From a phage: DNA of 64,000 bases. Shown piece by piece: positions 4,157 to 49,069 of the stretch (within the stretch, counting starts at the first letter, position 1; each line of letters opens with the position of its first letter). The DNA is taken from sequence record PX441839.1. One strand, given 5' to 3'. The position numbers and the translations under genes are program-made. A model generated the notes under the pieces. It was given only the letters and a program-made list of their open reading frames with translations, was not told the DNA's origin and made no database searches.

Positions 4157-4309
4157 ATGAAACACTATCTAGTTAATATACCTGGTGTTGCGGGACCGCT
4201 CAAAGTTTACGGGTACGACGAAAAGGACGCAAGAAAGCGCCTACGTGATCGGGAAGGGTACAGAAAACGCCTACCCAATGGCACAAAACTTTATTTAAAA
4301 ACAGCTTGA
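4157..4309 (+). CDS. small basic protein (50 aa)
   Basis: First ATG after the promoter; listed ORF 4094..4309 begins inside the promoter. Confidence 0.4.
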   Translation: MKHYLVNIPGVAGPLKVYGYDEKDARKRLRDREGYRKRLPNGTKLYLKTA

Positions 4310-4345
4310 CGTTAGGTTATGCCGCCCCTATAATGGACGGCATAG
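4306..4345 (+). promoter_or_regulatory. sigma70-type early promoter (class II)
   Basis: TTGACG, 17 bp, TATAAT; palindrome atgccgcc / ggacggcat around the -10. Confidence 0.55.
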
Positions 4346-4375
4346 GCAAACGAAAGAAAACTAAGGTGATTCATT

Positions 4376-4648
4376 ATGAAAAGTAAACTGTCAAGAGAAG
4401 AAATTAGTCAAGTGTTATCTTTCAACATGCAAGACTGGAAAGAAAACGCCGACATTTGCGAAGCTCAAGATCTTAACGAAGAATTAACAATTGACGAAAT
4501 AAGCATTGTGTGCTCACCTGATTTTTATGATGAGTTGCACGAAAAAGATGATCTTTTTAACGTCCTGGAGAATAATTTCATGGATACCGATTTATGTGTG
4601 TACAGTATCGATACTTTTATTCTTATCCATAACATATACAACAACTAA
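4376..4648 (+). CDS. hypothetical acidic early protein (90 aa)
   Basis: ORF with promoter and RBS. Confidence 0.5.
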   Translation: MKSKLSREEISQVLSFNMQDWKENADICEAQDLNEELTIDEISIVCSPDFYDELHEKDDLFNVLENNFMDTDLCVYSIDTFILIHNIYNN

Positions 4649-4664
4649 AGGAAAGGGCCGCATT

Positions 4665-4955
4665 ATGTTTGAAGTATTCGCCGGAATGTGTTTTTATGGT
4701 GCTATGGCATTGCGTCAATGTGAAGATTACACCGTTGAAGTGTATCATGATCCCTTATCTTGCGAGATCGTGGCGCAAGATTACCGACAGGATAAACGCT
4801 GGCTTAATCCTCAGTGTATCCCATCGCCGGAGGTTGAACCAATGCCAGAAGGTGAAGCCCTGGAAGGTGAGGAGATCCGCGCCGTTGTTAGCTATATGCT
4901 AGATAACTTAAACGCCGATCAGCTTGTTTCTATGTATGCAGAAACAGAAAAATAA
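4665..4955 (+). CDS. hypothetical early protein (96 aa)
   Basis: ATG at 4665 after AAAGGAAAGGG RBS, in frame with listed ORF 4506..4955. Confidence 0.45.
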   Translation: MFEVFAGMCFYGAMALRQCEDYTVEVYHDPLSCEIVAQDYRQDKRWLNPQCIPSPEVEPMPEGEALEGEEIRAVVSYMLDNLNADQLVSMYAETEK

Positions 4956-4958
4956 TTG

Positions 4959-4999
4959 TTGACGTTGGTTTATGCCGTCGCATATAATAGACGGCATAG
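4959..4999 (+). promoter_or_regulatory. sigma70-type early promoter (class II)
   Basis: TTGACG, 18 bp, TATAAT; palindrome atgccgtcg / cgacggcat around the -10. Confidence 0.55.
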
Positions 5000-5031
5000 G
5001 CAAACGAAACAAACCATAAAAGGGTTACAAA

Positions 5032-5223
5032 ATGAAATCATCTTTACTTTTTTGCACTGTAAACATCATCATTGGTAACGGTTGCGGATCTCATGAATTT
5101 ATTAAGGGCAAGCCTTACAGCCTTTCATCGCTGCAAGCTGATTTTCGTTTATTGCCAGGACAGATCCGCAAATACTTTCGCGCCCCGTATCCAAAAGGAT
5201 ATAAAACAAATTTAGCAAAATAA
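5032..5223 (+). CDS. hypothetical early protein (63 aa)
   Basis: ORF with promoter and RBS. Confidence 0.4.
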   Translation: MKSSLLFCTVNIIIGNGCGSHEFIKGKPYSLSSLQADFRLLPGQIRKYFRAPYPKGYKTNLAK

Positions 5224-5227
5224 AGTA

Positions 5228-5256
5228 TTGACAAGGGGCACAGATTACCCCATAAT
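5228..5256 (+). promoter_or_regulatory. sigma70-type early promoter (class III + leader hairpin)
   Basis: TTGACA, 17 bp with gggg..cccc, CATAAT; leader hairpin at 5267-5285. Confidence 0.55.
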
Positions 5257-5307
5257 GTAACACATAGGGCGACACAACGTCGCCCACTAACAAAAGAGAT
5301 AAACAAA

Positions 5308-5592
5308 ATGATCAAGGCAAACAACTTTTTCTTCCTGGCTAACGTAGCGGATCACATCGTGGCAGAATTTAGAAACGTGGATGCAACAGCATTTATAAAA
5401 ATGCGTCATGAAAAAGACGTTTCAACGGATCGCGTAGAAATGGAAGTTACCCGCCACGGCAAAGAGTTTAAAATCAAATATCTGATTATCGTAAATAATG
5501 CAACATTTAGCGAGGGAACCAGCGAACCGATCCCGGACAATATGATCCAGCAAGTGATCGCCGCCGTTGCTAACGGATCAATTTTACCTTAA
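5308..5592 (+). CDS. hypothetical early protein (94 aa)
   Basis: ORF with promoter and leader. Confidence 0.5.
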   Translation: MIKANNFFFLANVADHIVAEFRNVDATAFIKMRHEKDVSTDRVEMEVTRHGKEFKIKYLIIVNNATFSEGTSEPIPDNMIQQVIAAVANGSILP

Positions 5593-5599
5593 AAAGTTG

Positions 5600-5640
5600 T
5601 TGACGTTGGTTTATGTGGGGCGTATAATTCCCCACATAGA
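5600..5640 (+). promoter_or_regulatory. sigma70-type early promoter (class II)
   Basis: TTGACG, 17 bp, TATAAT; palindrome atgtggggcg / ccccacat around the -10. Confidence 0.55.
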
Positions 5641-5661
5641 CAAACGAAACGAGAGATTAAA

Positions 5662-5868
5662 ATGTACACCATGATCGCACTTGCAGTATACTTCCTTTCA
5701 TCTTGCATTTACATTATGTTGGCGCTTGCCTTCCCTGGTGAGTTGGTTTATAGTTTTATGGGCGTAGATCTTGTTTTATGGGCGGTCGCCACGCCACTGA
5801 TGATCGTTCCCGCCGTGATCATTTATTGGATTGAAGAAAAGATTACTGATTTGCTAAAAGGCTATTGA
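5662..5868 (+). CDS. small integral membrane protein (68 aa)
   Basis: ORF with two predicted hydrophobic helices. Confidence 0.45.
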   Translation: MYTMIALAVYFLSSCIYIMLALAFPGELVYSFMGVDLVLWAVATPLMIVPAVIIYWIEEKITDLLKGY

Positions 5869-5926
5869 CAAGGCAACCACAAACAAAGATAATAGCCTCA
5901 TTGAAAACAACTAGTAAGGATTTACG

Positions 5927-6079
5927 ATGTATAAGCTGTTAACCTGGGAACATGAGACAAGCCAACCGATTAGCCGTGACTTTTTCGATTTGTGCGCCGC
6001 TTACCGACTGGCAAAAGGCGGTTACTATAAAGCCCAAATCATTGATGAAAATAATGTTGTACTTTATGAGTTTAAATGA
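5927..6079 (+). CDS. small protein (50 aa), not in the ORF track
   Basis: ATG at 5927 after AAGGA RBS; followed by hairpin gcgccccgaaaggggcg at 6087-6103. Confidence 0.3.
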   Translation: MYKLLTWEHETSQPISRDFFDLCAAYRLAKGGYYKAQIIDENNVVLYEFK

Positions 6080-6133
6080 TTAACAAGCGCCCCGAAAGGG
6101 GCGATAATTACCACACAAAACAGGAGACAGTAA

Positions 6134-6376
6134 ATGAAAGTTCAAAATGTATTGATTTGTGAAGATTGCGCCTTGTACCTTAATACAGGTGAGCTTCCCG
6201 CTGATACCACACCAGAAGATGATCAGGACATCATCCACGGGGCGGAATATCTAGATATAACTTACAAATTTGGGAGTGTAGGCACTAGTTTAGGCTTTTC
6301 AATAAAACCGTGTGAATGTTGCGGATCTCGCCTGGCCGGAGATCGCTATGAATATGATAATCTTGGCTTAAAATAG
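6134..6376 (+). CDS. small zinc-ribbon protein (80 aa)
   Basis: CEDC ... CECCG Cys pairs; GGAGA RBS. Confidence 0.5.
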   Translation: MKVQNVLICEDCALYLNTGELPADTTPEDDQDIIHGAEYLDITYKFGSVGTSLGFSIKPCECCGSRLAGDRYEYDNLGLK

Positions 6377-6536
6377 TAGTTGACTACAACGAAAGAAAAG
6401 AATACTATGTATCACATGAAAGGCAAACAGCCTAAACCAACAAAGAGAGAAACAAAATGAGCGTAGTATTCTTAATTTCAGTTTTCGTAGCTATCGCCGC
6501 TTCAACCGCAATTTGTGTAAAATTAGGATGGTAAGA

Positions 6537-6932
6537 ATGGAAAGTGTAAAAGATACCCTGTTAAATGCTTTTTTGTCCGGCGCTACTGAGGCGTTATTGT
6601 TCGCAGAATCCGCAGAAGATGCAAACGGGGAGACAATCGAACATTTGAACGGTTACGAATTAAGCAATGCAAGCAAAGCACTGTTAAAACTGGAATCTGT
6701 TAAATTCTTAGATTTAGGAAACAACTTAATAGAAAAAGCTATTGACAGTAGCGGCGATTTATACGATTATACTCAAGCGGGGCGGGATTTTTGGTTTACT
6801 CGTCAAGGTCACGGCGTAGGATTCTGGGATCGGGGTCTTGGGGAAGTTGGGGACCAGCTAACAGAACTTTCAAAATGTTTCGGTGAGCGCTGGATCTCTT
6901 TGAATGAAAATAATTTTGTAGAGGTTGAATGA
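6537..6932 (+). CDS. hypothetical protein (about 131 aa; start uncertain)
   Basis: In frame with listed ORF 6513..6932; ATG at 6537 has an AGGA RBS. Confidence 0.45.
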   Translation: MESVKDTLLNAFLSGATEALLFAESAEDANGETIEHLNGYELSNASKALLKLESVKFLDLGNNLIEKAIDSSGDLYDYTQAGRDFWFTRQGHGVGFWDRGLGEVGDQLTELSKCFGERWISLNENNFVEVE

Positions 6933-7276
6933 TGGCTGAAAAATTCTCAATAACTCAAAAGACAATTTACACCATTAAAAGCAAACACGGCGTTATTGAG
7001 TGTGAAGGGATAGCAGGACTAGAAAAGCACGTAGAGGAAACATTAGGCGCTTTTGTTGACAACATGCACGGCAACCATACAGGACTAAGATCAAAAGATC
7101 GGATCAATGATTATGATTACCTGTTAGAGAATCGCCAGGACTTAGAAACAATTTTCGCCCTTATGGATGCCGTTAAGGATCTGAAAAATCCACCATCGCC
7201 GGATCACGATTGTGATGATTATTATTGTAACCGTTGCGGATCTGGATCGGCCATTGAATACGTAGGAAATAATTAA
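6929..7276 (+). CDS. hypothetical protein with C-terminal Cys cluster (115 aa)
   Basis: Start overlaps the upstream stop; CDDYYCNRCG motif. Confidence 0.5.
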   Translation: MMAEKFSITQKTIYTIKSKHGVIECEGIAGLEKHVEETLGAFVDNMHGNHTGLRSKDRINDYDYLLENRQDLETIFALMDAVKDLKNPPSPDHDCDDYYCNRCGSGSAIEYVGNN

Positions 7277-7278
7277 CA

Positions 7279-7500
7279 ATGCAAACTAAAAACCTGTTAG
7301 GAAAATCTGATTTTTTAAGAGCGCTCGCGCCTGGCGAATCGGCGGTATGGAACGTGCAAGGGAAAGATGTAGAAAAGGAAATGCGCCTGTTTACTGCTAC
7401 CGCTTGCCGCCTGGCAGTGACTATCACACAAAGGGCCGCTTTAATTGTTTTGGCTGATAACTTGCCCTTACATTGTGTAATCGTGACTAAGGTTAAGTGA
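7279..7500 (+). CDS. hypothetical protein (73 aa)
   Basis: Abuts the upstream gene. Confidence 0.45.
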   Translation: MQTKNLLGKSDFLRALAPGESAVWNVQGKDVEKEMRLFTATACRLAVTITQRAALIVLADNLPLHCVIVTKVK

Positions 7501-7511
7501 ATGACAATAAC

Positions 7512-7555
7512 AGGCCCAAATAGTGAACGTATGGCGCTATAAGGGCCTTTTTGGT
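7512..7555 (+). terminator. rho-independent terminator
   Basis: aggccc ... gggcct stem followed by ttttt. Confidence 0.45.
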
Positions 7556-7646
7556 AAGAGGTAAGGCAATCAGGCACTAAAGCCTAAAAATTCAATACAG
7601 ACCCTTACAGGGCCTCACATCAAAAATAAAAATCATCTTAAAAGTG

Positions 7647-7675
7647 TTGACTCTTAAATTACTTTTCGGTATCTT
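7647..7675 (+). promoter_or_regulatory. putative sigma70-type promoter with variant leader hairpin
   Basis: TTGACT, 17 bp, TATCTT; leader variant gggcggcaatggtgccaaggccc at 7684-7710. Confidence 0.4.
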
Positions 7676-7728
7676 TTACCACGTAGGGCGGCAATGGTGC
7701 CAAGGCCCACAACTTAGGAGCCAGTAAG

Positions 7729-7983
7729 ATGACAACTTTCAAACACGTAATTTCTGTAAATACTGCTATCCTTGGCGGCGTGGAACGTGATAAAGCTTTT
7801 TATTCAAAGTATATCGGTGATTCATGTTTTAACTACTGGGGCATGAAGATGTCAGAAGTTCGCCGGATACTGGGATTCGGTAATACTGGCCGTAAAGTTA
7901 TTTCGGGCGATATCGCCAGAACTTTAAACGTAGGCTATGACATCGCCAAGAAAATTCTTTCCGATGTAGAAAAATCACTCTAA
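7729..7983 (+). CDS. hypothetical protein (84 aa)
   Basis: ORF with RBS; hairpin ggccccgaaaggggcc follows at 7991-8006. Confidence 0.5.
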   Translation: MTTFKHVISVNTAILGGVERDKAFYSKYIGDSCFNYWGMKMSEVRRILGFGNTGRKVISGDIARTLNVGYDIAKKILSDVEKSL

Positions 7984-8184
7984 TCATTAAGGCCCCGAAA
8001 GGGGCCAACATGCAAAGGGAATAGTAGTGATTTACTTTAAAAATGTTGAAACGGGCCGATTCTACCGCTTTAAAAATAGCCGTGTTTTGTTCCACATTGC
8101 TGGATTGTGGCGCATCAGCGACACATACAGACCCGCCGATCTTACGGGTTATCCTTTCATAGCTGTAAATATGGGACCATCATT

Positions 8185-8376
8185 ATGACCACAGAAAGCG
8201 ACATCAGACAAGCCCTGGCCGCTATGCGTTATCACCATAGATTAAAGAGCAGTGATCCAGGTTACGCCGGATCAACCTTTGAGAGGGATACCATAGAGGG
8301 GATCGCCACACTTAAGAACCTTATGGACCGTATGAGGGACAGCAACAGATCCGACTTTTTAGGGGAGGAGATTTAA
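8185..8376 (+). CDS. hypothetical protein (about 63 aa; start uncertain)
   Basis: Internal ATG of listed ORF 8107..8376. Confidence 0.35.
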   Translation: MTTESDIRQALAAMRYHHRLKSSDPGYAGSTFERDTIEGIATLKNLMDRMRDSNRSDFLGEEI

Positions 8377-8404
8377 TTTATCGGACCATAACCACTGGAT
8401 GTAA

Positions 8405-8440
8405 AAACAGGTTGATTTGGTCGGCCTGTTTTGTTATCTT
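8405..8440 (+). terminator. rho-independent terminator
   Basis: aacagg ... cctgtt stem followed by ttttgtt. Confidence 0.45.
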
Positions 8441-8795
8441 ATTTAGACGGCGGGCACCTGGGGACAGGGGGAGACAAACACCGGACCTGCCTGTTATTCA
8501 GGTTGACTTACCGGACCTGGGCCACGTTCTGCAAATGAAAATGGTTATCATTCCCAATAAAATCAAATACATACTTTCAAACCGTTGTCAAATTTATTTC
8601 ATACTACTGTATAAATATACATGGCCCTAAAACGCCCTGAATCGCGTTTTAAGCCGTTTTACCCTGAATCCTTACCCTACATCATTAAAAAATAGATCTC
8701 GCGAAATCGGACTTTCGCACTTTTTGCCCTTGCAAACATGAAAATTTTATGCTAGATGAGTTGGTTGGAATTGACAAAACTTTACAATCCCCCTA

Positions 8796-8824
8796 TTGAC
8801 GGCAAGCCCAGAAAAGCCTATTAT
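8796..8824 (+). promoter_or_regulatory. sigma70-type promoter with variant leader hairpin
   Basis: TTGACG, 17 bp, TATTAT, then cacatagggcggcaatggtgcgacggccc. Confidence 0.45.
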
Positions 8825-8876
8825 TTATCACATAGGGCGGCAATGGTGCGACGGCCCACAAAGAGGAGACCGTAAA

Positions 8877-9020
8877 ATGAACCTGACTAACTTTAACCGC
8901 TACTACATCCGCGACGAACAAGCTAACGCTTTCGGTTATGACCGCACCGCTGAAGCCGCTGAAAAGCAACATAAAATTTTCATCCGTTGGATTGCAGACT
9001 ATAAAAAGGCCCGCGCTTAA
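8877..9020 (+). CDS. small protein (47 aa)
   Basis: ATG at 8877 after AAGAGGAG RBS; the listed start at 8796 lies inside the promoter. Confidence 0.4.
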   Translation: MNLTNFNRYYIRDEQANAFGYDRTAEAAEKQHKIFIRWIADYKKARA

Positions 9021-17659: not shown

Positions 17660-18201
17660 TATTTCCTAGCTCCGCTCTCAAATGCCCTTTTTGTTACCTT
17701 TGCCATAGCTTCGAGGTCTTCCATTGTCACTGTTGGGTGATTTTTCTCAAGGTATCCCTTTATTGCCCCAATAATGTCACTAAGTTCTTGCAGGGCCATC
17801 AGTTTGACACCTTGTTTCTCAGCATCCATGAATTCCTGCACCTCTTCCATCACTTTCCCTGAGGTCCCGTATGCATGTTTTTCTATATCTACAAGGTGGT
17901 AGCCTGGTGACTTTTTACTTGGACTTACCTTATCTCTTACTTTTACCCAAAACACCCCATTTCGAGTGTCGGTGCTAACAACTGTTCGGATGTAGATCCA
18001 TTCCCCAAGCTCCTCCTTCACTTTGAATCTGTGCCCTGGTTCAATGGTATCCATATCGATAATCTCATCGTGACTAATTTCATCAATGACCGACACAAGT
18101 ACGTTGGGAAGCAGTTTGCATTCATTTTCCATCAGCGATGCTGAAAGCATCACCTCCAGGGCACTCATTTCCATACCTATCTCCTCTTTTAATTTTTCCA
18201 A
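17659..18201 (-). CDS. MazG-like all-alpha NTP pyrophosphohydrolase domain protein (180 aa)
   Basis: C-terminal EEVQEFMDAEKQG ... LQELSDIIGAI matches the MazG acidic helical pattern; start overlaps the downstream gene. Confidence 0.45.
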   Translation of the reverse strand: MEKLKEEIGMEMSALEVMLSASLMENECKLLPNVLVSVIDEISHDEIIDMDTIEPGHRFKVKEELGEWIYIRTVVSTDTRNGVFWVKVRDKVSPSKKSPGYHLVDIEKHAYGTSGKVMEEVQEFMDAEKQGVKLMALQELSDIIGAIKGYLEKNHPTVTMEDLEAMAKVTKRAFESGARK

Positions 18202-19304
18202 GCCATATCTTGAACCTTAAGAATAACTTCTTCTGCTAACTTCTTGTCTGAATTATACGGCAACGAAGTAGACTTGTAAAGGACATTTCGAACGTACTCG
18301 TCCTTTCCCTCTGCCCACTCAAGAATCTCATCGAGAGTCTTCGATCCATTTCGGATTGCCAATAATTCATCAGCATCTTCACGGAACACATTGACTTCCC
18401 CTGTTGTGAGGATCTCTTCCGCCATTCGCATCAGGCGAACAAGGTGCATAGCGTGTTTTGTGTCGTAACCGAATTTAACCTCCAATTCATGGCGTGTGGC
18501 ATTACGGTTTTTCTTCCAATTCCAATAGTTCTTGTGCTTTTCTTTTGCCTGTTTGTGTTCTTCCCGCATGTACTTAACAAAGAACAGCGGAGGCTGGCGC
18601 TTAATACTGTCTGGGATCTCTTCATACACAACCTTCCTGATAGAACCATCTGGATTGAACATAGGTGGAACATTGTCCCGATGGTCAGGAACAACAGCAA
18701 AATGATCTGCACCAAGTGGAATCATTGAACAAACCCCAACCATGTTATTCAGTTTCCTCATGAAGTCCTCGTGCTTGAGCACAGGAACAGACAAATAACT
18801 TTGCACAAGTCTGAAAAACTCCAACTGACTTGGTGCTTTTTCTGGTTGCGGGTTGTTAATCCACTTATCGTGACCTCGGATACGCTTAAGTTGGCTCATT
18901 GCATACCCGCTAAATCTGTGCGCCACGTTGGAATTCAAAAAGGTATGAGCATTGTCCCGAAGAATATCAAATTCCGGCGTTCTGTACAGGATCTCTTGGT
19001 CCCTAGTGAATAGGGTCTCAATGATGTTTGGGTTCATATCCAGAAACAAACTCATGAACGTATTCAATTCATAAACTTTACCATCCTCTGCTCCAGGGAT
19101 GTTTAGTTCAGTTACCTTCTTGAAGGGTGTCCGCACAACACCCGGTTTTGCAACAAAGATACCTCGGATATCTGTATCACTCGTCGGAAGAGATGTACCG
19201 TAAGCCTTCGATCCTGACAAGTTTAGCATGACCACTTTTGAAACGTCTGGATGCTTTTCCAGACTTGCTACCATACTTAATACCTCTCCATTCGGAACAC
19301 ACAT
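18189..19304 (-). CDS. Pol-beta-superfamily nucleotidyltransferase (about 371 aa)
   Basis: hG[GS] ... [DE]h[DE]h signature LSGSKAYGTSLPTSDTDIRGIF; ATG at 19304 preceded by GGAGGAGG RBS. Confidence 0.6.
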   Translation of the reverse strand: MCVPNGEVLSMVASLEKHPDVSKVVMLNLSGSKAYGTSLPTSDTDIRGIFVAKPGVVRTPFKKVTELNIPGAEDGKVYELNTFMSLFLDMNPNIIETLFTRDQEILYRTPEFDILRDNAHTFLNSNVAHRFSGYAMSQLKRIRGHDKWINNPQPEKAPSQLEFFRLVQSYLSVPVLKHEDFMRKLNNMVGVCSMIPLGADHFAVVPDHRDNVPPMFNPDGSIRKVVYEEIPDSIKRQPPLFFVKYMREEHKQAKEKHKNYWNWKKNRNATRHELEVKFGYDTKHAMHLVRLMRMAEEILTTGEVNVFREDADELLAIRNGSKTLDEILEWAEGKDEYVRNVLYKSTSLPYNSDKKLAEEVILKVQDMAWKN

Positions 19305-19400
19305 GTTTACCTCCTCCAATTCGACCATCGTATAAATCACAGAGGCCACACCCTCTGCTTTTTAATTTTTTATAGTTAGAACAGTTCTCGCAACTACGTG

Positions 19401-19766
19401 TCACCATAGGAAGTTGACACCATAAGAAATCAAGAGGATCAACATTGTAAAGCTGTATGCCAGGCTGTACAGAACTGTACCTACAGTTGAGTCTGGACTA
19501 CGTTGAGTAGCCATCACCTTAATCCAATGGTACACTGCACTTGACCAGTGGAGTACAACGATTGATGTCCCCAGTACAAAAGGTGCGGCACTATACAAAC
19601 TGTAGCTTAACCACATACCAAAAGCGCAGAACAGCGTCAGGATGAAAATTGCACCCGGTTTCATGTGTTTCCCAAACCCAGGTCCTGACTTACCTCCTAA
19701 CAGACAGGTTATGACACCAAGAAAAGACAGAGAGTTTAGAACCAAGAGTACATAAAATTGCCACAT
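19401..19766 (-). CDS. integral membrane protein (121 aa)
   Basis: Three to four hydrophobic helices. Confidence 0.5.
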   Translation of the reverse strand: MWQFYVLLVLNSLSFLGVITCLLGGKSGPGFGKHMKPGAIFILTLFCAFGMWLSYSLYSAAPFVLGTSIVVLHWSSAVYHWIKVMATQRSPDSTVGTVLYSLAYSFTMLILLISYGVNFLW

Positions 19767-20164
19767 TATAATTTCTCCTCATAAATATCAGTGATGAGGT
19801 CAGAGACCTCGAAAGACTCTAACTCTTCGACGTTGATCAGGCGCTTCAAGCGCTCAATAACGAAGTCCTTCTTCACAAACACATCGGACAAGTGAGCTAT
19901 GTCCTGCTTTCCACGAAGTCCACTCACCAACTGCTTGTACCGAATGTGTTCACTATACTCTTCCCTGTTCATGGTTGTCAACCGTTTATTGTCGGAAACT
20001 TTCAAAAATACCTTTCCACTGTCCCAGTCGAACCCATTGCTAATTCCGTCAACGCCTATGGTTGGTAATGCCCCGATTGTAATGTGTCCAACCTCAACAG
20101 GGATCACCACGTCGGCATCTGGATCACATTGCCACAGTAAATCTATAAGTTCACTTACCTTCAT
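19766..20164 (-). CDS. hypothetical protein (132 aa)
   Basis: Six-frame ORF abutting neighbours. Confidence 0.5.
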   Translation of the reverse strand: MKVSELIDLLWQCDPDADVVIPVEVGHITIGALPTIGVDGISNGFDWDSGKVFLKVSDNKRLTTMNREEYSEHIRYKQLVSGLRGKQDIAHLSDVFVKKDFVIERLKRLINVEELESFEVSDLITDIYEEKL

Positions 20165-20468
20165 TCAATTTCTCCAAAACAAAACCAACCAGTAGGTCAA
20201 TGATGGCGATAAATGCTGCTACAGTTCCCACTGCAATCAGGAACGGCAGTAGTGTAAGTATGGGTCCTGACATGAACCCTGCAAATGCCCCGATAAAAGA
20301 TCCAACTATCGCCATTTCGTATTTTCGAGACTTAGCTATCCCTTTTGTTACTCGGTGCAGAACAAATATCCAAATAACGATACCCATTGTTAACCACACA
20401 GGTGGGTACATTGCGTAGCTCTCTGCCCAAACACTGGCGACTTTTAAAAATTCCATCATATCACTCAC
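20151..20468 (-). CDS. integral membrane protein (105 aa)
   Basis: Multiple hydrophobic helices. Confidence 0.5.
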   Translation of the reverse strand: MSDMMEFLKVASVWAESYAMYPPVWLTMGIVIWIFVLHRVTKGIAKSRKYEMAIVGSFIGAFAGFMSGPILTLLPFLIAVGTVAAFIAIIDLLVGFVLEKLNEGK

Positions 20469-20937
20469 CCTTTAAGCGAAGCTTTTTAATATTCACCAAA
20501 AGCTCTCGCTCACCCTCTGTAAAGTAACGGGTATCCCCATCTTCCGTGAGGTATGTAAATGGGGCATTACCCTCCTCGTCAAGTTTAGAGGAATACATAT
20601 ACTCTGGCAGTACAATACAGGCCGCAGTTAATGCACCATTCAAAGCATCCTCTGTTTCCTGGAAAAAGGAAGATGGCAGGTGCTTGTTCTTGTCGAAGAT
20701 GTCGATAAGGTCGAATATCTTCTGCTGATAACCACCATTAAGTACGATGATTGTCTTATCTGTGGATGCCCACTGTTTTGCCATCCTCACAGCAGCATGG
20801 CCTTGGTTTACCGCAGAGTTGTACTTATGCATAAGTTCAACAATGGCGTGAGCAGACTGAATACCTGCATGGATACCTGCGATATACTGATTAACAACAC
20901 AATACATACGGGTTGACATATTTCTCTCCTTAATCAT
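20461..20937 (-). CDS. putative peptidyl-tRNA hydrolase, PTH2-like (158 aa)
   Basis: MYCVVNQYIAGIHAGIQSAHAIVEL and QW...KTIIVL follow the PTH2 pattern (M.LVVR...G.AAQ.SHA / W...K.VV); sits directly before the CCA enzyme. Confidence 0.45.
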   Translation of the reverse strand: MIKERNMSTRMYCVVNQYIAGIHAGIQSAHAIVELMHKYNSAVNQGHAAVRMAKQWASTDKTIIVLNGGYQQKIFDLIDIFDKNKHLPSSFFQETEDALNGALTAACIVLPEYMYSSKLDEEGNAPFTYLTEDGDTRYFTEGERELLVNIKKLRLKGE

Positions 20938-22243
20938 TTAACCATTTTGGTGTATATGCGTATTGCAAATTACGAATATTCTTTTCTGTAATATCTGACT
21001 TAGCTTTTAGGATACCTCTTGCAACATAGCCTACTTTCAGACTCTTTACCTTTTGCTGGATAACCTCTGGTCGTCCTTTGAACTCCTCTGCGATCTCTCT
21101 GCTCTTTTTAGATATCTCTGACCTGTTTCTTACCAACTCCGCAACAGCACCGAGCAAGATATAAGGTTGATCATAGGCATCGTGAATTTTTGTAGGCCCT
21201 CGTCCACGAGCATCGCAAATACACGCCTCTACAAATTTCATTATAAACTCTTGGTCTTTCTCACCTCTCAACCGAGAAATTAAATCATATACCTTTTTCG
21301 GCCTCATGTCCAACACCCTGTGAAGTCGGGTATGATCGTCACATACCCTCCAAGCAAGGTCCATCCATTTGTTTGGAACTCCGAACCTGTCTCCCAACGA
21401 TTTTACGTAACCAAGTCCCTCAAACTCATGACCTCGTAGATGACCATGATCCCAGTACATAACCTTTCCAAGATCGTGGCACAATACTGCCCATTTCACC
21501 TCCGGTGCTGACTTAAGCCCTTGTGCGTAGTCCAAGCAAAGAAGGGTGTGTACATAGGCATCTCCTTCTGGGTGGTGAGCCTCAGGTTGCTTAACCCCTT
21601 TAAGATTATTTACCTCTGGCATTTCTCCAAGTTCGCACAAGGTGTCTATCATTATTGACGGTTTGTTCAAAGAAGATTGGTCTTCAAAACACTTACGGAT
21701 CTCCGCCATTTTTCTTTCTTTTGGGAGAGCCGCAAGGTTTTCCTTTGCTCGGTGTGCCAAAAGAACAGTGCTTGCTGCAACTTGGAAAGTTCCACCGTAC
21801 CTGGCGAACAATCTTGCCAGTCGGTAAATTCGCAAAGGGTCATCTCGTAATGTGTCACGGGAGACATGTCTAAGGACTTTCCTTTCTATGTCCTTTGCCC
21901 CATTAAAAGGATCAACATATTCTCCGGTTTCCAAATCTTTTGCAATCGCATTTATAGTAAGATCTCGTCTCTTTAAGTCTTCTTCGATTGTTACATCTGG
22001 GCTGAAAACTACCTCAAAATCATGGTATCCTGCTCCAGTTGATCGTTCGGTACGTGCCAAGGCGTACTCTTCCTTGGTTTCTGGGTGAAGATAAACAGGG
22101 AATGCAGCACCAACTTGCTCAAACCCCATTTCAATCATGTCCTCGTGGGTATATCCAACACAAACATAATCCTTATCTTTTGGCTCCAGACCCATCAGTT
22201 CGTCACGGACGGCACCTCCAACCAAGTAGATCTTCTTATTCAC
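20930..22243 (-). CDS. cca: tRNA nucleotidyltransferase (CCA-adding enzyme) with HD domain
   Basis: N-terminal LVGGAVRDELMG ... DKDYV head-domain motifs and a C-terminal HD-type region; 437 aa. Confidence 0.8.
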   Translation of the reverse strand: MNKKIYLVGGAVRDELMGLEPKDKDYVCVGYTHEDMIEMGFEQVGAAFPVYLHPETKEEYALARTERSTGAGYHDFEVVFSPDVTIEEDLKRRDLTINAIAKDLETGEYVDPFNGAKDIERKVLRHVSRDTLRDDPLRIYRLARLFARYGGTFQVAASTVLLAHRAKENLAALPKERKMAEIRKCFEDQSSLNKPSIMIDTLCELGEMPEVNNLKGVKQPEAHHPEGDAYVHTLLCLDYAQGLKSAPEVKWAVLCHDLGKVMYWDHGHLRGHEFEGLGYVKSLGDRFGVPNKWMDLAWRVCDDHTRLHRVLDMRPKKVYDLISRLRGEKDQEFIMKFVEACICDARGRGPTKIHDAYDQPYILLGAVAELVRNRSEISKKSREIAEEFKGRPEVIQQKVKSLKVGYVARGILKAKSDITEKNIRNLQYAYTPKWLND

Positions 22244-23091: not shown

Positions 23092-23607
23092 TTAACTTTT
23101 TGGTTTTGCCCAGTAAAACGGCGATTCAAGCTCCAGTCTTCCTTTTGGGTCCCAGATAAAGTAGCAATACTCAGCACCATCTGTTTTTCCATCATCTGTA
23201 AAAGATGGACGCTTAGAGAGGGTGATTAAGTGGTCAACTGGGTATTCTCCCCAGAAGTCGAACCGCTTCATGCTTCCAAGAAACCCTGCTCGAAGGAGCA
23301 TTATAACAACATCTGCATCTTTGTGGGCCTTCTCTACAAACTCCTGAGCCAAAGAATACGGAGGGTTTGTTATGATACAATCCACACGATTATACTCTGT
23401 GGTGAGATAATCCACACCTTCCCTGATCTCTCCCCACGCAGATCCTATCGGCATGTGGTTATAAAAACGCCCAGAGGCACGACACGGTTCCATGTATGTC
23501 CAATCTTTTCTGATAGGTACGATACTCAAGAGTGCATCAACTGCCCACTCAGGGGTCTCATACAAATCAAAAGCTTTTCGTTCCCCTTTTGGCTTCAATG
23601 CGGCCAT
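23092..23607 (-). CDS. DNA methyltransferase, probably N6-adenine (NPPY motif)
   Basis: DCIITNPPYS motif IV; 171 aa. Confidence 0.7.
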   Translation of the reverse strand: MAALKPKGERKAFDLYETPEWAVDALLSIVPIRKDWTYMEPCRASGRFYNHMPIGSAWGEIREGVDYLTTEYNRVDCIITNPPYSLAQEFVEKAHKDADVVIMLLRAGFLGSMKRFDFWGEYPVDHLITLSKRPSFTDDGKTDGAEYCYFIWDPKGRLELESPFYWAKPKS

Positions 23608-24467
23608 TACACCTTCTCCTTCAAACGCCGCACAATTTCTTGACGGATATACTCAGGACTATCATGGATAGACAGATAATTTATATCAAAAGCTTTTGCA
23701 ATCTCAATAAGCTCACTGGGCGTATACTCATCAAAATCTTTTGTGCTTAGTTTACCAAGAGAAAAGGTCTTCTTCTTTCCGTTATCCAAAGTTATGTCGA
23801 ACTCATCTCCTTTGTCAATCTCTTGAGTTGGGAATGGGAAAATTATGCTATCCGAAGCTTTAACTTCCTTTTTGCCATCCCCTAGTCGCGATCTGGCATC
23901 CTCTGCATTGAGATATACCTCACCCGCATGATCAAACAGTCGGCTCAACTCCTCGTCTGTCAGAATTTCAGAGTACAAATCATGAAATTGATTCTTGAAC
24001 TCCCGTGCATAAAAATCAACACGGGTTTTGATATTCGCAGAATCACCGCCCAGAGATAGTTGTGCATTGTGGAACATCAGATAGCAACCATCCTCAATCA
24101 CCCGCTCATGACCACTAAGGAAAATATTCACCGCTGCACTGGCAACCTCACCCACAGCAACAGTTTTCACCTTGGCCTTGCTTGCCTTGATCGCAGAGGT
24201 GTACATACTTGCGATAGAAAGGTATCCACCAGGGGAGGTGATATAAATTGTAATTGTGTCATGCTCACCTGCGTTACGGATCAGGTCCACAGGTTCAATA
24301 TGATTGGCTGGGTGGTCCCCAAGCTCTGTTAAGTGAATGCGCCAATCGTGGCGCTCCTTGGAACGAGACCAAATCATCTTTACATTTTCCGGCAGTAACT
24401 GATCACCCATTATCAAACCCCCTTCTCTAAGTCTTCCCGAATCCGCTGTGCGTTTTGAAGAATCCAC
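23607..24467 (-). CDS. ClpP-like serine protease (S14 family) with N- and C-terminal extensions
   Basis: ITSPGG ... GEVASAA ... MFHNAQ resembles the ClpP INSPGG / GxAAS / MIHQP core; 286 aa. Confidence 0.5.
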   Translation of the reverse strand: MDSSKRTADSGRLREGGLIMGDQLLPENVKMIWSRSKERHDWRIHLTELGDHPANHIEPVDLIRNAGEHDTITIYITSPGGYLSIASMYTSAIKASKAKVKTVAVGEVASAAVNIFLSGHERVIEDGCYLMFHNAQLSLGGDSANIKTRVDFYAREFKNQFHDLYSEILTDEELSRLFDHAGEVYLNAEDARSRLGDGKKEVKASDSIIFPFPTQEIDKGDEFDITLDNGKKKTFSLGKLSTKDFDEYTPSELIEIAKAFDINYLSIHDSPEYIRQEIVRRLKEKV

Positions 24468-24997
24468 TCAATAACCATTGAACGATCAGAATCCACAATC
24501 ACTTCATGATGTCTTTTAAACATATCTAATACTCGACGGGCCTCAGCAGCGTAACGTGCGGCGCGGTCGAAGAACAAGAATTCCTCTTTGTCCGTATCTG
24601 TAATAGGGCAAAGGTCACTGGGTACATCAATAGCCACCAAGTGATCAACAAGTTCTTGCCGAGTAGTAAACATAAGATCAACCTCTTGGTCAATCGGCAG
24701 AGAAAGATCCATCAATTTGAAAAACCAACCCTTGTCTTCCTTTTGTTGTCTGCGGATACTTTTAATTTCAGACTTAATATGGCAGAACTTTATGTTTGCA
24801 AGGAGTTCAAGCTGGTCAGAATCAACTACCCCAGAGTTCTTCAATTCCATTAGCTTACGATGCTCAACTGTTGCATAAATACCTTGATCCACAAACTCCC
24901 CCTTAGAATCCGACAACGTAGTGAAACTTTCCATCAATCTCTTTGCTTTCATAGATAACGTAGTACCACCCATCTTTTCCCCCTGATACCCGATCAC
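24413..24997 (-). CDS. hypothetical protein (194 aa; start uncertain)
   Basis: Six-frame ORF. Confidence 0.45.
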   Translation of the reverse strand: MIGYQGEKMGGTTLSMKAKRLMESFTTLSDSKGEFVDQGIYATVEHRKLMELKNSGVVDSDQLELLANIKFCHIKSEIKSIRRQQKEDKGWFFKLMDLSLPIDQEVDLMFTTRQELVDHLVAIDVPSDLCPITDTDKEEFLFFDRAARYAAEARRVLDMFKRHHEVIVDSDRSMVIEWILQNAQRIREDLEKGV

Positions 24998-25202
24998 CCT
25001 GTTTCAATTCAACATCCGAAACATACTCAGTGGCTTCTCTGAAATATCGCCACTTAGTCATATCTTTGAACGATGCCAGTCTTTTGTTTGACCCATCCAC
25101 CGCAAATAGGCTCTGATTGGCCCACATGCCTACTTGAAACTTCCCATCCTTCCCTTTTGCCAAGGCATACACCGAGTTTAGTTGTTTACTGTCTACTGAC
25201 AT
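24903..25202 (-). CDS. hypothetical protein (99 aa)
   Basis: Six-frame ORF. Confidence 0.45.
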   Translation of the reverse strand: MSVDSKQLNSVYALAKGKDGKFQVGMWANQSLFAVDGSNKRLASFKDMTKWRYFREATEYVSDVELKQGDRVSGGKDGWYYVIYESKEIDGKFHYVVGF

Positions 25203-25809
25203 TTCTTCTTTCCTCCATACTTACCAAAAACTTTTCCAAGATAACCCTATTCTCTTTATGAAGGAGATTCAAAGTCCTAATTCCCTGCTTCTTTGCCAGA
25301 TTAACAGCAGTTGCAGTTCCACCTTTCGGATTTCCACCTTTTGTTTCTGGGGTGCAATATAACACAAATTTGCTCTGATTCAAGTAGGCGTTTCCCAAAT
25401 CCTTTCCGAACAGTTGGTGTACATTCCTCTCATGTAGTTTCCTAGCGCCTTGAGATAATCGCTCCCAACCACCATGCACCTCTTTCACCCAGTCCCATCT
25501 CATATCTGCATGACCTGGGTAAGCTCTGTCTAAGGTTTCTAAGGTTATGTCATAGATGTCTCGAAGTCCTTCCCCACCTTTGAACCCTTTCCAAGGGATG
25601 TATATTTCCGCCATAGTGCAACTCTGTTGCTTAAGGTGGCACTCTACATGATATTTCTGCATACCCCTTTGGAATGCCGCATCTGCACCTGCTGCTTTTC
25701 CTGATCGTAGAATAAAACCCATTCTTGCCAATCGATAACCAGCGTCCTCCATGACGCTGATAACCTCTGGCGGCGTTTCTCGACTTCCTATCCCGGTATA
25801 CGCAACCAT
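25186..25809 (-). CDS. DprA/Smf-like Rossmann-fold (SLOG-type) protein
   Basis: YTGIGSRETP ... RLARMGFILRSGKAAGADAAFQRG ... GGTATAV resembles the DprA/LOG-family pattern; 207 aa. Confidence 0.4.
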   Translation of the reverse strand: MVAYTGIGSRETPPEVISVMEDAGYRLARMGFILRSGKAAGADAAFQRGMQKYHVECHLKQQSCTMAEIYIPWKGFKGGEGLRDIYDITLETLDRAYPGHADMRWDWVKEVHGGWERLSQGARKLHERNVHQLFGKDLGNAYLNQSKFVLYCTPETKGGNPKGGTATAVNLAKKQGIRTLNLLHKENRVILEKFLVSMEERRNVSRQ

Positions 25810-25819
25810 TTAAACCCCC

Positions 25820-26230
25820 TTAAGGATATTCTTTTCTTCGAAGCTCGAAGTGGGGACCGTCATAGAACCGTTCATCTTTCCAGTCCCCGTTTTCATTCCA
25901 GTCTCCACCCCACCGAATCGCCACACCAAGCTCATCTGCACACTTGAACATTGTCTCAGATAATTCGTTGAACTTTCCCTTATCATCCCAAGGAATTTTT
26001 CCACCAATCAGAGGTGCAATGTCCACAGCATGACCTGTCAGGTGGCGACTGTTCATGGTCTTGCTTACACCCTTCCGAACGTTCTCTGCCTGTTTCTCTC
26101 GTGAACGGACACCTTCAATGACCGTGAAGTCAAACTTGGTTTTGGTAATAGCAAGTTTTACCACCTTCACAAGATCAGGGTGTACGCCATTCAAACGGTC
26201 AAGACTTCGTTTTCCTAATACAAATGCCAT
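25820..26230 (-). CDS. endolysin, L-alanyl-D-glutamate peptidase (peptidase M15 family)
   Basis: 136 aa; SRHLTGHAVDIAP ... WGGDWNENGDW matches the T5-type endolysin fold. Confidence 0.7.
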   Translation of the reverse strand: MAFVLGKRSLDRLNGVHPDLVKVVKLAITKTKFDFTVIEGVRSREKQAENVRKGVSKTMNSRHLTGHAVDIAPLIGGKIPWDDKGKFNELSETMFKCADELGVAIRWGGDWNENGDWKDERFYDGPHFELRRKEYP

Positions 26231-26232: not shown

Positions 26233-26691
26233 TTACTCCTTTGGTCCAAAGAAAGACTCATTTAATTGAGTCAGTGCCGGAGACAAGGTCAAAGATGCTT
26301 CTGCAATCCGAGCCTCGTACTCCAAATCTTTTAAATAACGATCAAGATCGTCAGCACTTAACTTACCGTAGTGTTCCTTAAAGGTGTTCTTGATCGCATC
26401 CTTGAACTCTTCCCCCGCCAGGACTTGAAGACCATCTTCCAGTTTTTCCAAGTCCTTCTTGTTCTGTTTTGTAGGTCGATGAATTCCCTTCAAGAAGTCA
26501 ATTGTTTCAATTGCCGCCCGAATCTGTGCATCGATATTAATTTTAGCCAGCAGATCCCCAATACGGTCAAGAGTTTCTTCTTTCAGGTTGGTAGTATTAC
26601 AGTTCGAAGTCATCAATCTCAATCTCCTCTGGTTTATTAAAAGTATCACAAAGCTCAGTATACCCGCCAATATATTCCCTGTCACCATCAA
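26233..26691 (-). CDS. possible holin-like membrane protein (152 aa)
   Basis: N-terminal transmembrane segment then charged coiled region; adjacent to endolysin. Start overlaps the upstream gene, so uncertain. Confidence 0.35.
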   Translation of the reverse strand: MMVTGNILAGILSFVILLINQRRLRLMTSNCNTTNLKEETLDRIGDLLAKINIDAQIRAAIETIDFLKGIHRPTKQNKKDLEKLEDGLQVLAGEEFKDAIKNTFKEHYGKLSADDLDRYLKDLEYEARIAEASLTLSPALTQLNESFFGPKE

Positions 26692-47867: not shown

Positions 47868-48158
47868 ATGAATATTCAAGAACAGGTTAAAATAACTTTC
47901 GAAGACCTTGTGGAACTACATAAGAAACGAAAATATCAAAAGGGCCGAGAAAAGAAGGCAATGGAGGATGTGGTATTCTTTTCTAAAGATGGTCATGGAC
48001 TTTCCAAGAAAGAGGCAAACAGGAAGGTTGATGCAGCGTGGGCTACACAACGGGACGCTGTGAACATTGTGTCAGGTATTGATAAGCAGATTGAATATGA
48101 ACTGAATGCCATAGGGCAGATTATCAACTTTGTTGCGGAAAAGGAGAGTGATAAATGA
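47868..48158 (+). CDS. hypothetical protein (96 aa)
   Basis: ATG at 47868 after GAGAGGAGAGAAG RBS. Confidence 0.5.
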   Translation: MNIQEQVKITFEDLVELHKKRKYQKGREKKAMEDVVFFSKDGHGLSKKEANRKVDAAWATQRDAVNIVSGIDKQIEYELNAIGQIINFVAEKESDK

Positions 48159-49069
48159 TTTCTTTACATCTCGATAACTTTAAAAGGGTTAAGCTTGAGT
48201 TTATGACGTTCAGCGGTGGAGAGCGTAACGTCCGTATAGGTGGACTGGATGTCGAAAAAGATGGTGTTCTTGAGTTTGCTGGATATGGGGAGGTTGACCA
48301 TCTCTCTCAACGTAAGTGGGAAAATTATCGTGTAACAGCACATATTCAAAGCTCAGATGATATCATGGATCTGTTACTTCTAAAGGATGCCATTGATCGT
48401 GTGGGCAATGGATGTTTGCGACGTGTATACTCAATCCTGCATCTTCCGTATCTCCCATATGCTCGACAAGACCGTGCAATGGTAAACGGGGAGGCGATCT
48501 CTGTTGTCGTTATGGCAAACCTGATTAACTCTCTTGAGTTTGATGCCGTGTGGATTGATGACCCGCATTCTGATGTTGGTCCGTCGCATATAAAAAACGC
48601 CGTAATTACCCCTCAGCATGAGCTTTTGCTGGACATGTGTAACAAAGATGATGTTCTTTCCGATGGAACAATCATTGTTGCACCTGATGCAGGTGCCATG
48701 AAAAAGGCAAGCAAGTTGGCTGAACTCGCTGATTTACCTCTCGGGACTGGTGGTAAACACAGGGATGTCAAGACAGGTAAGATTACAGGAACAACTTACA
48801 CAGGGCCAGATGTAAACGGTAAACGATGCCTGTTGGTAGACGATATTGCGGATGGCGCTGCCACATTTGTGTGTCTTGCAGAGAAACTAAAATCCCTGGG
48901 TGCAAAACAGGTTGATCTGTATGTAACGCACGGCATTTTCTCAAAAGGGATTGATGACCTTGAGCATATCGATAAGATTTATTCGGCATACCCCTGGAGA
49001 AAGAACGTTAAGTGGAAAAATGGAAAAGGTAAGCTAAATACGGTTGACATCGTAAGCTGGTTCGAGTAA
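48155..49069 (+). CDS. ribose-phosphate pyrophosphokinase (Prs)-like; candidate ADP-ribose pyrophosphate synthetase (NARP1 Adps)
   Basis: LPYLPYARQDR and LLVDDIADGAATF match the Prs motifs; immediately upstream of the NAMPT-like gene. Confidence 0.8.
   Translation: MISLHLDNFKRVKLEFMTFSGGERNVRIGGLDVEKDGVLEFAGYGEVDHLSQRKWENYRVTAHIQSSDDIMDLLLLKDAIDRVGNGCLRRVYSILHLPYLPYARQDRAMVNGEAISVVVMANLINSLEFDAVWIDDPHSDVGPSHIKNAVITPQHELLLDMCNKDDVLSDGTIIVAPDAGAMKKASKLAELADLPLGTGGKHRDVKTGKITGTTYTGPDVNGKRCLLVDDIADGAATFVCLAEKLKSLGAKQVDLYVTHGIFSKGIDDLEHIDKIYSAYPWRKNVKWKNGKGKLNTVDIVSWFE

Follow-up and report, generated by a model that had tools for sequence, protein, structure and literature searches.

What might a phage gain from a small, stand-alone protein built like the nucleotide-binding domain of DprA? 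This question is raised by a gene in phage record PX441839.1, of which we analysed a stretch of 64,000 nucleotides (nt), henceforth called the window; coordinates are positions of this whole stretch. The gene (25186..25809, minus strand) is an open reading frame (ORF) with an ATG start that encodes a SLOG protein of 207 residues. A preliminary description made from the sequence had delimited the ORF exactly and singled out three motifs, all of which are present in the translation: GIGSRETP at residues 6-13, SGKAAGADAAFQRG at residues 36-49 and GGTATAV at residues 163-169. Our analysis leads us to a tentative preference for one answer, namely that the protein provides a non-catalytic, DprA-type pocket for single-stranded DNA (ssDNA), which possibly is ADP-ribosylated. 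A role in the chemistry of soluble ADP-ribose (ADPR) derivatives is nearly equal to it in likelihood, and the two readings are not fully exclusive.

A common family of phage proteins

There is nothing unusual about the window protein within its family, which is very common and already catalogued. It matches PHROG 768, 'DprA-like DNA recombination-mediator protein', with E=2.4e-62 and 210.9 bits, residues 2-202 of 207 aligning to profile positions 4-186 of 191. Conservation was assessed in 135 representatives drawn from a library clustered at 50% identity, in which the residues of the quoted motifs are 95-100% conserved; together with the PHROG match, this places the motifs well beyond chance. 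Searches with tblastn located relatives in 1,203 of 50,697 deposited phage records, whose hosts include Pseudomonas, Klebsiella, Escherichia, Vibrio, Aeromonas, Acinetobacter and others, and in 1,501 records when a 40%-identical relative served as the query. When 1.84 billion representative proteins were searched with a profile, 5,447 clusters (50% identity) reached E<=1e-3 and 1,109 of them E<=1e-30. The family is overwhelmingly phage-borne: similar search patterns yielded 154 confirmed loci in IMG/VR against 15 in 185,579 bacterial and archaeal genomes, and several of these 15 lie on contigs of metagenome-assembled genomes (MAGs) that have a phage-like appearance.

The label 'DprA-like DNA recombination-mediator protein' is used by PHROG, Pharokka and GenBank alike. 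It has been transferred by remote homology only, and our literature search found no experimental study of any PHROG 768 member. In one record, that of Klebsiella phage vB_Kpl_K54lambda1.1.1 (OY979426.1), a coding sequence named 'nicotinamide-nucleotide adenylyltransferase' overlaps the SLOG ORF and its neighbours. This is not a fusion: the deposited annotation is shifted out of register with the ORFs, most coding sequences are flagged as pseudogenes, and product names taken from this record are unreliable.

Fold and relationship to DprA

An AlphaFold2 model computed from 63 homologues (predicted local distance difference test 95.7, predicted template modelling score 0.91) depicts a single domain with a five-stranded Rossmannoid core (strands 3-8, 33-36, 67-71, 148-152 and 178-181), with a mainly helical insertion separating strand 3 from strand 4 and a further helix after the core, at the C-terminus. 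The three-layer alpha/beta arrangement, the five-stranded parallel core sheet and the similarity to known SLOG proteins are those that define the SLOG superfamily. The preliminary description had proposed a DprA/SLOG-like Rossmann protein and had named a structural match to an unrelated Rossmann family of housekeeping function as the result that would speak against it. The top ten Foldseek matches in the PDB are instead all DprA, comprising nine H. pylori chains and R. palustris 3maj. Fold-match values for other proteins were 13.3 (MoCo carrier protein), 13.1 (TM1055), 12.9-9.0 (LOG-type phosphoribohydrolases), 12.4 (ShosA), 10.9 (YpsA) and 10.7 (SLOG domain of ThsA with 3' cyclic ADP-ribose, 3'cADPR). 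The closest models in BFVD are uncharacterised or 'DprA-like' phage proteins, some with additional domains.

At the sequence level, the relationship is remote. Pfam model PF02481 (DNA_processg_A) matches the window protein over residues 7-49 only, at 14.5 bits (E=0.02) against a gathering score of 29.6. Sub-threshold PF02481 matches are nevertheless shared by 55 of 62 diverse family members (best E 1.1e-5), and 12 of the 62 match 'SLOG cluster4'. The LOG (PF03641) and YpsA models of Pfam match none of these 62 members, and the YpsA-like and YAcAr models (PF06908, PF10686) gave no qualifying match to the window protein. When PDB sequences were searched, a 63-sequence profile (A2) gave no match, and a profile of the diverse family (A3) ranked DprA chains at the top, if weakly (3maj E=0.01, H. 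pylori DprA (HpDprA) ~0.03-0.04, SpDprA 3uqz 0.39). Other searches were less telling: phmmer with the single protein against solved structures returned only a chance match to thiopurine methyltransferase, the NCBIfam scan an irrelevant weak match only, and the PADLOC scan ShosA only (11.6 bits, residues 7-45), and hhalign of the family against the lone E. coli Smf sequence was uninformative (20 columns, E=0.058).

The comparison with a DprA Rossmann-domain profile of nine sequences (E. coli Smf and eight DprA homologues from PLSDB records, several of them chromosome-sized) was more revealing. In its default local mode, hhalign aligned the family to this profile over residues 7-53, the N-terminal half (Prob 92%, E=5.6e-7); the global and low-mact modes extended the alignment to ~150 columns at Prob 91%. 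The longer alignment pairs G8-S9-R10 with G-S-R, S36..D43 with SGLARGID, strand AEIYI with SIAVL, L125-H-E-R128-N129 with F-P-R-R-N, strand FVLYC with LVVEA, and G163-G164-T165 with S-G-S. Adding Smf to the family alignment by MAFFT --add misplaced the helix with the R-N pair and was discarded as inconsistent with the secondary structure of the model; the equivalence of this helix with that of DprA is thus founded on the profile alignment and on the order of secondary-structure elements. On these grounds, the PHROG 768 protein is a stand-alone member of the DprA-like branch of SLOG proteins.

A conserved pocket of the DprA type

Positions conserved at 87-100% in the family are G6, G8, S9, R10, R35, S36, G37, A39, G41, D43, F46, G49, P72, W73, F76, H112, L125, H126, R128, N129, Q132, G135, G163, G164, T165, T167 and N181. 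All of them map to the C-termini of strands or the N-termini of helices and are therefore predicted to surround one ligand pocket. The ligand loops typical of the SLOG superfamily can be recognised in G8-S9-R10, S36-G37-x-A39-x-G41-x-D43 and G163-G164-T165, with 95-100% conservation.

What such a pocket can do is known from DprA. In the HpDprA-ssDNA structure, an inserted thymine occupies a small basic pocket, where it is held by Tyr108, Arg143, Asn144 and Gly164, while Phe140 provides a stacking partner for the base and Arg52 serves as a switch that contacts the phosphate (Wang et al., PMC3950713). Two motifs have been proposed to identify DprA domains, 'G-S/T/A-R' (HpDprA Gly50-Arg52) and 'F/L/Y-x-x-R-N/D' (Phe140-Asn144) (PMC3950713), and both are found in the window protein. 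The first is the G8-S9-R10 loop after strand 1 (25780..25788, minus strand, as are all parts of the gene listed here; 99/95/99% conserved), which hmmsearch and hhalign both align to DprA GSR/GTR. The second is contained in the helix L125-H126-E-R128-N129-V-H-Q132-L-F-G135 (25405..25437), in which L125 is 87%, R128 and N129 are 100%, and H126 and Q132 are 99% conserved; L125-H126-x-R128-N129-x-x-Q132 constitutes a fourth conserved motif in addition to the three quoted earlier. The SGxAxGxD nucleotide loop and the N-terminus of the helix behind it are formed by R35-S36-G37-K-A39-A-G41-A-D43-A-A-F46-Q-R-G49 (25663..25707; R35, G37, G41 and D43 100%), aligned to DprA SGLARGID. The loop P72-W73-K-G-F76 (25582..25596; P72 99%, W73 91%, F76 93%) follows strand 3, modelled at residues 67-71. 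The loop G163-G164-T165-A-T167 before the last core helix (25309..25323; G163, G164 and T165 100%) takes the place of S-G-S in DprA. It reads KGGTATAV rather than the PGGxGTxxE of LOG proteins, with T167/A168 at the position of the Glu and an N170 that is not conserved.

The family also has features of its own. H112 (25474..25476), a near-invariant histidine in the helical insert (94%), is kept in members fused to NADAR domains, and R35, H112, H126 and Q132 are family-specific additions without counterpart in the DprA motifs. The window protein has an isoelectric point (pI) of 9.4 and a net charge of +8; the median pI of the family is 8.4. Judged by these signatures, the predicted DprA-type pocket is intact in the window protein.

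Domain fusions and gene neighbourhoods of relatives

Clues to the ligand may come from the company that the family keeps. Scanning ten multidomain relatives against Pfam uncovered a NADAR domain in five, located at the N-terminus (P0138, P0216), at the C-terminus (P0248) or within much longer proteins (P0133, P0134), and the fused SLOG domains retain the full pocket signature. Another multidomain relative carries DUF7831, and three carry phage domains left unassigned by PHROG scans. NADAR enzymes cleave ADP-ribose off the guanine bases of DNA by hydrolysis, and one from phage T4, gp30.3 (AdfN), counters DarTG1 (PMC11125620, PMC11257639). P0133 and P0134 are giant proteins (1,475-1,488 residues) that unite the PHROG 768 SLOG domain with YAcAr, LDcluster4 SLOG and YbiA-like NADAR domains; three stretches of P0133 match PHROG 768. 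The 1,581-residue protein encoded at 4266-9011 of viral locus L063 contains a PHROG 768 domain only, and most of the length of each of the three giants is without recognisable family. They may be polyvalent counter-defence proteins.

To survey gene neighbourhoods, we called and clustered the ORFs of 80 viral loci from IMG/VR ourselves. A Macro-domain gene (22.5 bits in Pfam, gathering score 22) is situated 0.4-3 kb upstream of the SLOG gene in 9 of the 80, a raw count given without a background rate; a Sir2 gene is found ~4 kb away in eight loci and a NADAR gene ~1 kb upstream in one. Among the 15 bacterial and archaeal loci, a NADAR gene lies within 2.5 kb in two and a Macro gene is present in one.

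A recurrent arrangement includes genes resembling those of NARP1, a phage NAD+ reconstitution pathway encoded by the gene pair Adps and Namat. The phage Macro protein Adpp dephosphorylates ADPR-1''P and thereby feeds NARP1, and phage RyR-domain proteins have likewise been shown to process ADPR-type molecules that feed it. Six IMG/VR loci share the order phosphoribosyl-pyrophosphate (PRPP)-synthetase-like (PRS-like), one or two unrelated ORFs, NAPRTase-like, Macro, at least one small ORF and SLOG; in a seventh, partial case the PRS-like ORF is truncated, a Macro gene is present, and no NAPRTase-like gene was detected. Cultured Otagovirus phages such as Pseudomonas phage phiPsa374 (NC_023601.2, 991-6582) have the identical PRS-like/NAPRTase-like/Macro/SLOG order on one strand. 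The PRS-like and NAPRTase-like neighbours are homologous to a gene pair in the window (phmmer E=1e-37 and 1e-115), which encodes a PRS-like protein of 304 residues (48155-49069, plus strand) and a NAPRTase-family protein of 608 residues (49090-50916, plus strand), both recognised by Pfam. We take this pair to be of the putative NARP1 type, and the Otagovirus-type SLOG locus possibly represents an extended NARP1-type cluster; we found no paper that mentions it. The adjacency to Macro and NARP1 genes is drawn from about two phage lineages.

In the window itself, the NARP1-type pair lies 22 kb from the SLOG gene on the opposite strand. It is not adjoined by a Macro (Adpp) gene, and phmmer searches with NADAR and Macro queries matched none of the window's ORFs. 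Taken across relatives, NADAR fusions and Macro/NARP1 neighbours link the PHROG 768 family, at the level of predicted domains, to conflicts over ADP-ribose and NAD+. The suggestion in the preliminary description that the protein might relate to nucleotide-sensing conflict systems has gained support accordingly from these contexts.

How might the pocket be used?

Since all five elements of the DprA pocket are present and near-invariant, we propose that the protein binds ssDNA on replication or recombination intermediates of the phage, an idea to which we give tentative preference. An earlier in-silico suggestion that phage copies of DprA/Smf serve as additional ssDNA-binding proteins (Iyer et al. 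2021, PMC7824862) agrees with it. Three of the five elements are loops or part of one (G-S-R, SGxAxGxD and the glycine of S-G-S), and two are supplied by the L-x-x-R-N helix, namely its hydrophobic residue and its R-N pair; in DprA they jointly take one ssDNA base into the small basic pocket and hold the phosphate next to it. With G8-S9-R10, S36..D43, L125/R128/N129 and G164 as their equivalents, the window protein would likewise accommodate one base, with Arg10 placed on the phosphate. Conceivably, the bound ssDNA bears ADP-ribose. More speculatively, we envision an ssDNA-binding or ssDNA-targeting factor, of which the NADAR-fused relatives would be the clearest case: DarT toxins and NADAR enzymes both work on ssDNA, and targeting to ssDNA might therefore explain these fusions. 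The stand-alone form might target a NADAR-type activity in trans, or it might protect ssDNA or hand it over.

A number of observations weigh against this proposal. The R-(N/K) and G-S-x elements also occur in nucleotide-binding SLOG proteins, as in the R-K pair of LOG and in R89/N90, predicted to bind AMP, of the phage protein ORF83, an inhibitor of Salmonella Avs3 (SeAvs3) (EVADES preprint, 10.1101/2025.06.06.658234); the motifs are therefore no proof of ssDNA specificity. The default local hhalign alignment spans 47 columns only and ends short of the helix with the R-N pair, and the pairing of this helix with its DprA counterpart is not reproduced by MAFFT. A pI below 6.5 is seen in 21% of the representatives. 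The additional invariant polar residues R35, H112, H126 and Q132 may indicate another ligand or catalytic activity. There is no universal gene partner across distant phages, and a conserved downstream partner was not found either, the 160-194-residue proteins encoded after the SLOG gene in the window, phage alia and phage Epa26 being mutually unrelated. Finally, the giant multi-SLOG/NADAR relatives and the NARP1/Macro/SLOG order of Otagovirus fit a soluble ADP-ribose chemistry at least equally well.

That chemistry is at the heart of an alternative that we regard as possible, whereby the protein is a counter-defence module for soluble ADP-ribose or NAD+-derived nucleotides. Its pocket would bind an ADPR derivative of low molecular weight originating from host immunity, for example a cyclic ADP-ribose (cADPR) isomer or another ADPR conjugate, and might cleave the N-glycosidic bond of this ligand; the protein would accordingly act as a sponge, as a signal-destroying enzyme, or as a converter to ADPR for NAD+ reconstitution. 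NADAR fusions in both domain orders with the pocket intact would be accounted for, as would the joining of SLOG with YAcAr, LDcluster4 and NADAR domains in the giant proteins, yet NADAR and DarG-type Macro enzymes act on ADP-ribosylated ssDNA too, and the fusions fit an ssDNA model equally. The Macro genes near viral loci, the NADAR genes within 3 kb of one viral and two MAG loci, and the order of PRS-like (Adps type), NAPRTase-like (Namat type), Macro and SLOG genes in Otagovirus and six IMG/VR loci point in the same direction; the Macro/NARP1 adjacency, however, stems essentially from two lineages and is a raw count. The window phage itself possesses a NARP1-type pair (48155-50916), but this is remote from the SLOG gene and the queries used revealed no Macro or NADAR gene. 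Sensing or degradation of ADPr derivatives by viral SLOG domains has been predicted from similar contexts (PMC9503650), Adpp and RyR-domain proteins offer precedents for phage proteins that process such molecules for NARP1, and the invariant H112, H126, Q132 and R35 may serve in catalysis or determine specificity. The catalytic Glu of LOG is absent, however, the protein is strongly basic, and its nearest relatives by both sequence and structure are DprA proteins, not ThsA, YpsA or LOG.

Is the protein simply what its label says? A bona fide DprA-like mediator would form a dimer on ssDNA and load host RecA or a phage recombinase for recombination-dependent replication, which we consider improbable. 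The label employed by PHROG, Pharokka and GenBank agrees with it, as do the DprA-type pocket motifs and DprA as best fold match, but the name goes back to remote homology. A setting among genes for nucleotide metabolism and DNA transactions, including that of Pseudomonas phage Epa26, in which DNA ligase and PcrA-type helicase genes flank the SLOG gene, would suit a mediator, and phage copies of DprA/Smf have been suggested as possible stand-ins for UvsY (PMC7824862). The protein does not look like a canonical RecA-loading DprA, however, because the SAM and DML1/winged-helix domains are absent from its single domain of 207 residues and a RecA interface could not be made out. The C-terminal region, which in DprA is the site of dimerisation and RecA binding, aligns unconvincingly. 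ORF83 is without the DprA residues for dimerisation and RecA binding, and AlphaFold predicts no ORF83-RecA complex. The NADAR and Macro contexts would go unexplained, and ShosA provides an example of a DprA-like protein re-used outside recombination.

Least probable is a LOG-like phosphoribohydrolase that converts AMP or a modified nucleotide into base and ribose-5-phosphate, or an ORF83-like blocker of an Avs-type STAND NTPase sensor: ORF83 is experimentally anti-Avs3, R128, N129 and T165 are analogous to its predicted AMP-binding residues, and a 98% identical phage has Salmonella as its host genus, but T167/A168 stand where LOG has its catalytic Glu and ORF83 has D114, the absence of the Glu making phosphoribohydrolase activity unlikely, no family member matches the LOG model of Pfam, and any homology of ORF83 to PHROG 768 is conjectural.

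Wider meaning of the family

Beyond the individual protein, it is imaginable, if rather doubtful, that PHROG 768 as a whole forms a counter-defence class in an arms race over ADP-ribose and NAD+, in which a base pocket derived from DprA recognises an ADP-ribose-bearing ligand. The ligand would be either an ADP-ribosylated base in ssDNA (a DarT-type product) or an ADPR-derived immune signal, and it would be removed, sequestered or passed on to NADAR, Macro or NARP1 enzymes. If this were true, a very common 'DprA-like' phage annotation (in more than 1,200 deposited genomes) would denote a mis-named anti-immunity gene.

The family is very common, being encoded by ~1,200-1,500 of the 50,697 phage genomes deposited and making up more than 5,400 clusters (50% identity). 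Should the recombination-mediator label be right, then many large lytic phages carry an unstudied DprA-type ssDNA handler. Should the NADAR, Macro and NARP1 associations reflect the true role, then the label is misleading and genome annotation for phage therapy needs correction; the family would in that case join the tools of phages against immunity based on NAD+ and ADP-ribose (DarTG, Thoeris, SIR2, aRES). Because the standard annotation may be wrong, it would be reasonable to screen the family at large for binding and anti-defence activity.

The gene and its neighbours in the window

How the SLOG gene is expressed can be judged from its surroundings. It adjoins the gene for an M15 peptidase endolysin of 136 residues (25820..26230, minus strand; PHROG 465 E=2.2e-61; Pfam Peptidase_M15_4). 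The preliminary description had put it directly upstream of the endolysin, which holds in plus-strand coordinates only; both genes are on the minus strand, and in transcription the SLOG gene is the next one downstream, separated from the endolysin stop codon by 10 nt. By inspection of the sequence, a Shine-Dalgarno-like AAGGGGG (25815..25822, minus strand) lies 5 nt upstream of the SLOG ATG and overlaps the endolysin TAA stop, which suggests translational coupling and a shared operon of the two genes. Transcriptionally downstream, a gene for a 99-residue protein of PHROG 5456, a family without assigned function (24903..25202, minus strand), overlaps the 3' end of the SLOG gene by 17 nt, and this synteny is preserved in Klebsiella Mydovirus. 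Consensus scans picked out a strong promoter-like site (28593-28565, minus strand; 11/12 match) and two strong terminator-like hairpins (28642-28621 and 23087-23068, minus strand; 8-9 bp stems, 6 GC pairs, T-rich tails). As pattern matches, these would fit the borders of a likely single transcription unit, comprising genes for the ribonucleotide reductase beta subunit, glutaredoxin, the endolysin, the SLOG protein, a ClpP-like protein and a DNA methyltransferase.

Salmonella phage SSBI34 (Vequintavirinae, MZ520832.1) shares 98% identity with the window, and its deposited record gives Salmonella as the host genus. The SLOG product of SSBI34 is labelled 'hypothetical protein', differs from the window protein at four residues and is without the final residue. 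Elsewhere, SSBI34 has an extra C at ~13500 relative to position 24417 of the window. This 1-nt indel explains why SSBI34 is annotated with a single 448-residue 'ClpP' coding sequence where the window has overlapping ORFs, one ClpP-like (23607-24467) and one of PHROG 7224 (24413-24997); as Klebsiella Mydovirus has the two as separate ORFs, the fusion in SSBI34 is maybe a sequencing error.

Other genes of the window deserve mention. Directly before the endolysin in transcription order, a 152-residue ORF with a hydrophobic N-terminus (26233-26691, minus strand; PHROG 12288, function unassigned) is a candidate holin or spanin. A run of genes of the tRNA/RNA-repair type (18189-22243, minus strand) includes those for an RlaP-like Pol-beta nucleotidyltransferase (18189-19349), a PTH2-like peptidyl-tRNA hydrolase (20461-20937, a weak match) and a CCA-adding tRNA nucleotidyltransferase (20930-22243). 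On the plus strand, the NARP1-type pair is followed at 52173-54361 by ten clustered tRNA genes, those for Thr, Met, Tyr, Ser, Asn, Asp, Ile, Pro, Gln and Gly.

Comparison with known systems

How does the window protein compare with systems of known or proposed function? ORF83 is the sole phage SLOG protein with an experimental anti-defence phenotype that we found in the literature. It is annotated 'Smf/DprA' and is predicted to bind AMP through R89, N90, T112 and D114 (10.1101/2025.06.06.658234). It resembles the window protein in being small and stand-alone and in the R-N pair and the Thr of its predicted nucleotide pocket. It differs in that its top PDB matches are LOG rather than DprA, in having D114 where PHROG 768 has Thr/Ala, and, by residue numbering, in a shorter spacing between the R-N pair and the Thr loop. 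SLOG proteins of Marseillevirus and other giant viruses match the window model weakly in BFVD (E ~1e-3), and the amoeba-virus (Marseilleviridae) relatives reported for ORF83 may be these same proteins. AdfA (T4 gp61.2), an anti-DarT factor, was considered as a possible relative and dropped, since it is described as being without homology to known families.

Among bacterial systems, LOG or 'lysine decarboxylase-like' phosphoribohydrolases are set apart from the window protein by their catalytic Glu in PGGxGTxxE, and ThsA by its SIR2 domain, the window protein having neither this nor any other effector domain. ShosA, the DprA-like antitoxin of the ShosTA defence system, binds both ssDNA and RecA; it is bacterial, has 308 residues in the solved chain (8ZVA) and is partnered by a phosphoribosyltransferase toxin, no counterpart of which was seen adjoining the phage SLOG gene.

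With the Rossmann domain of DprA/Smf (PF02481; HpDprA 4LJK/4LJR, RpDprA 3MAJ, SpDprA 3UQZ), the window protein shares its basic character, the order of core strands and helices and, in alignment, three loops (G-S-R, SGxAxGxD and (S/G)-G-(S/T)) together with the L-x-x-R-N helix. Identity amounts to 14-18%, and the Pfam score lies below the gathering threshold. Most bacterial DprA proteins additionally have an N-terminal SAM-like and/or a C-terminal DML1/winged-helix domain; E. coli Smf, for comparison, has 374 residues against 207. Conversely, DprA does not have the extra helical insert of ~50 residues between strands 3 and 4 (residues ~77-146) that bears H112, H126 and Q132, and the C-terminal region can be aligned only when hhalign is forced into global mode.

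From other PHROG 768 proteins, the window protein shows no structural difference, in keeping with its membership. The closest conceptual parallel is the set of viral SLOG domains assembled by Iyer, Burroughs, Anantharaman & Aravind 2022 (PMC9503650), which frequently occur in fusion with Macro or NADAR domains and have been proposed to sense or degrade ADP-ribose-derived, cADPr-type signals. This proposal and the earlier one on phage DprA/Smf copies (PMC7824862) are both in silico and come from one group. The family described here has in common with that set the occurrence of stand-alone phage SLOG proteins, their enrichment in larger phages, the fusions to NADAR and Macro domains, and the co-occurrence with genes for NAD+ salvage.

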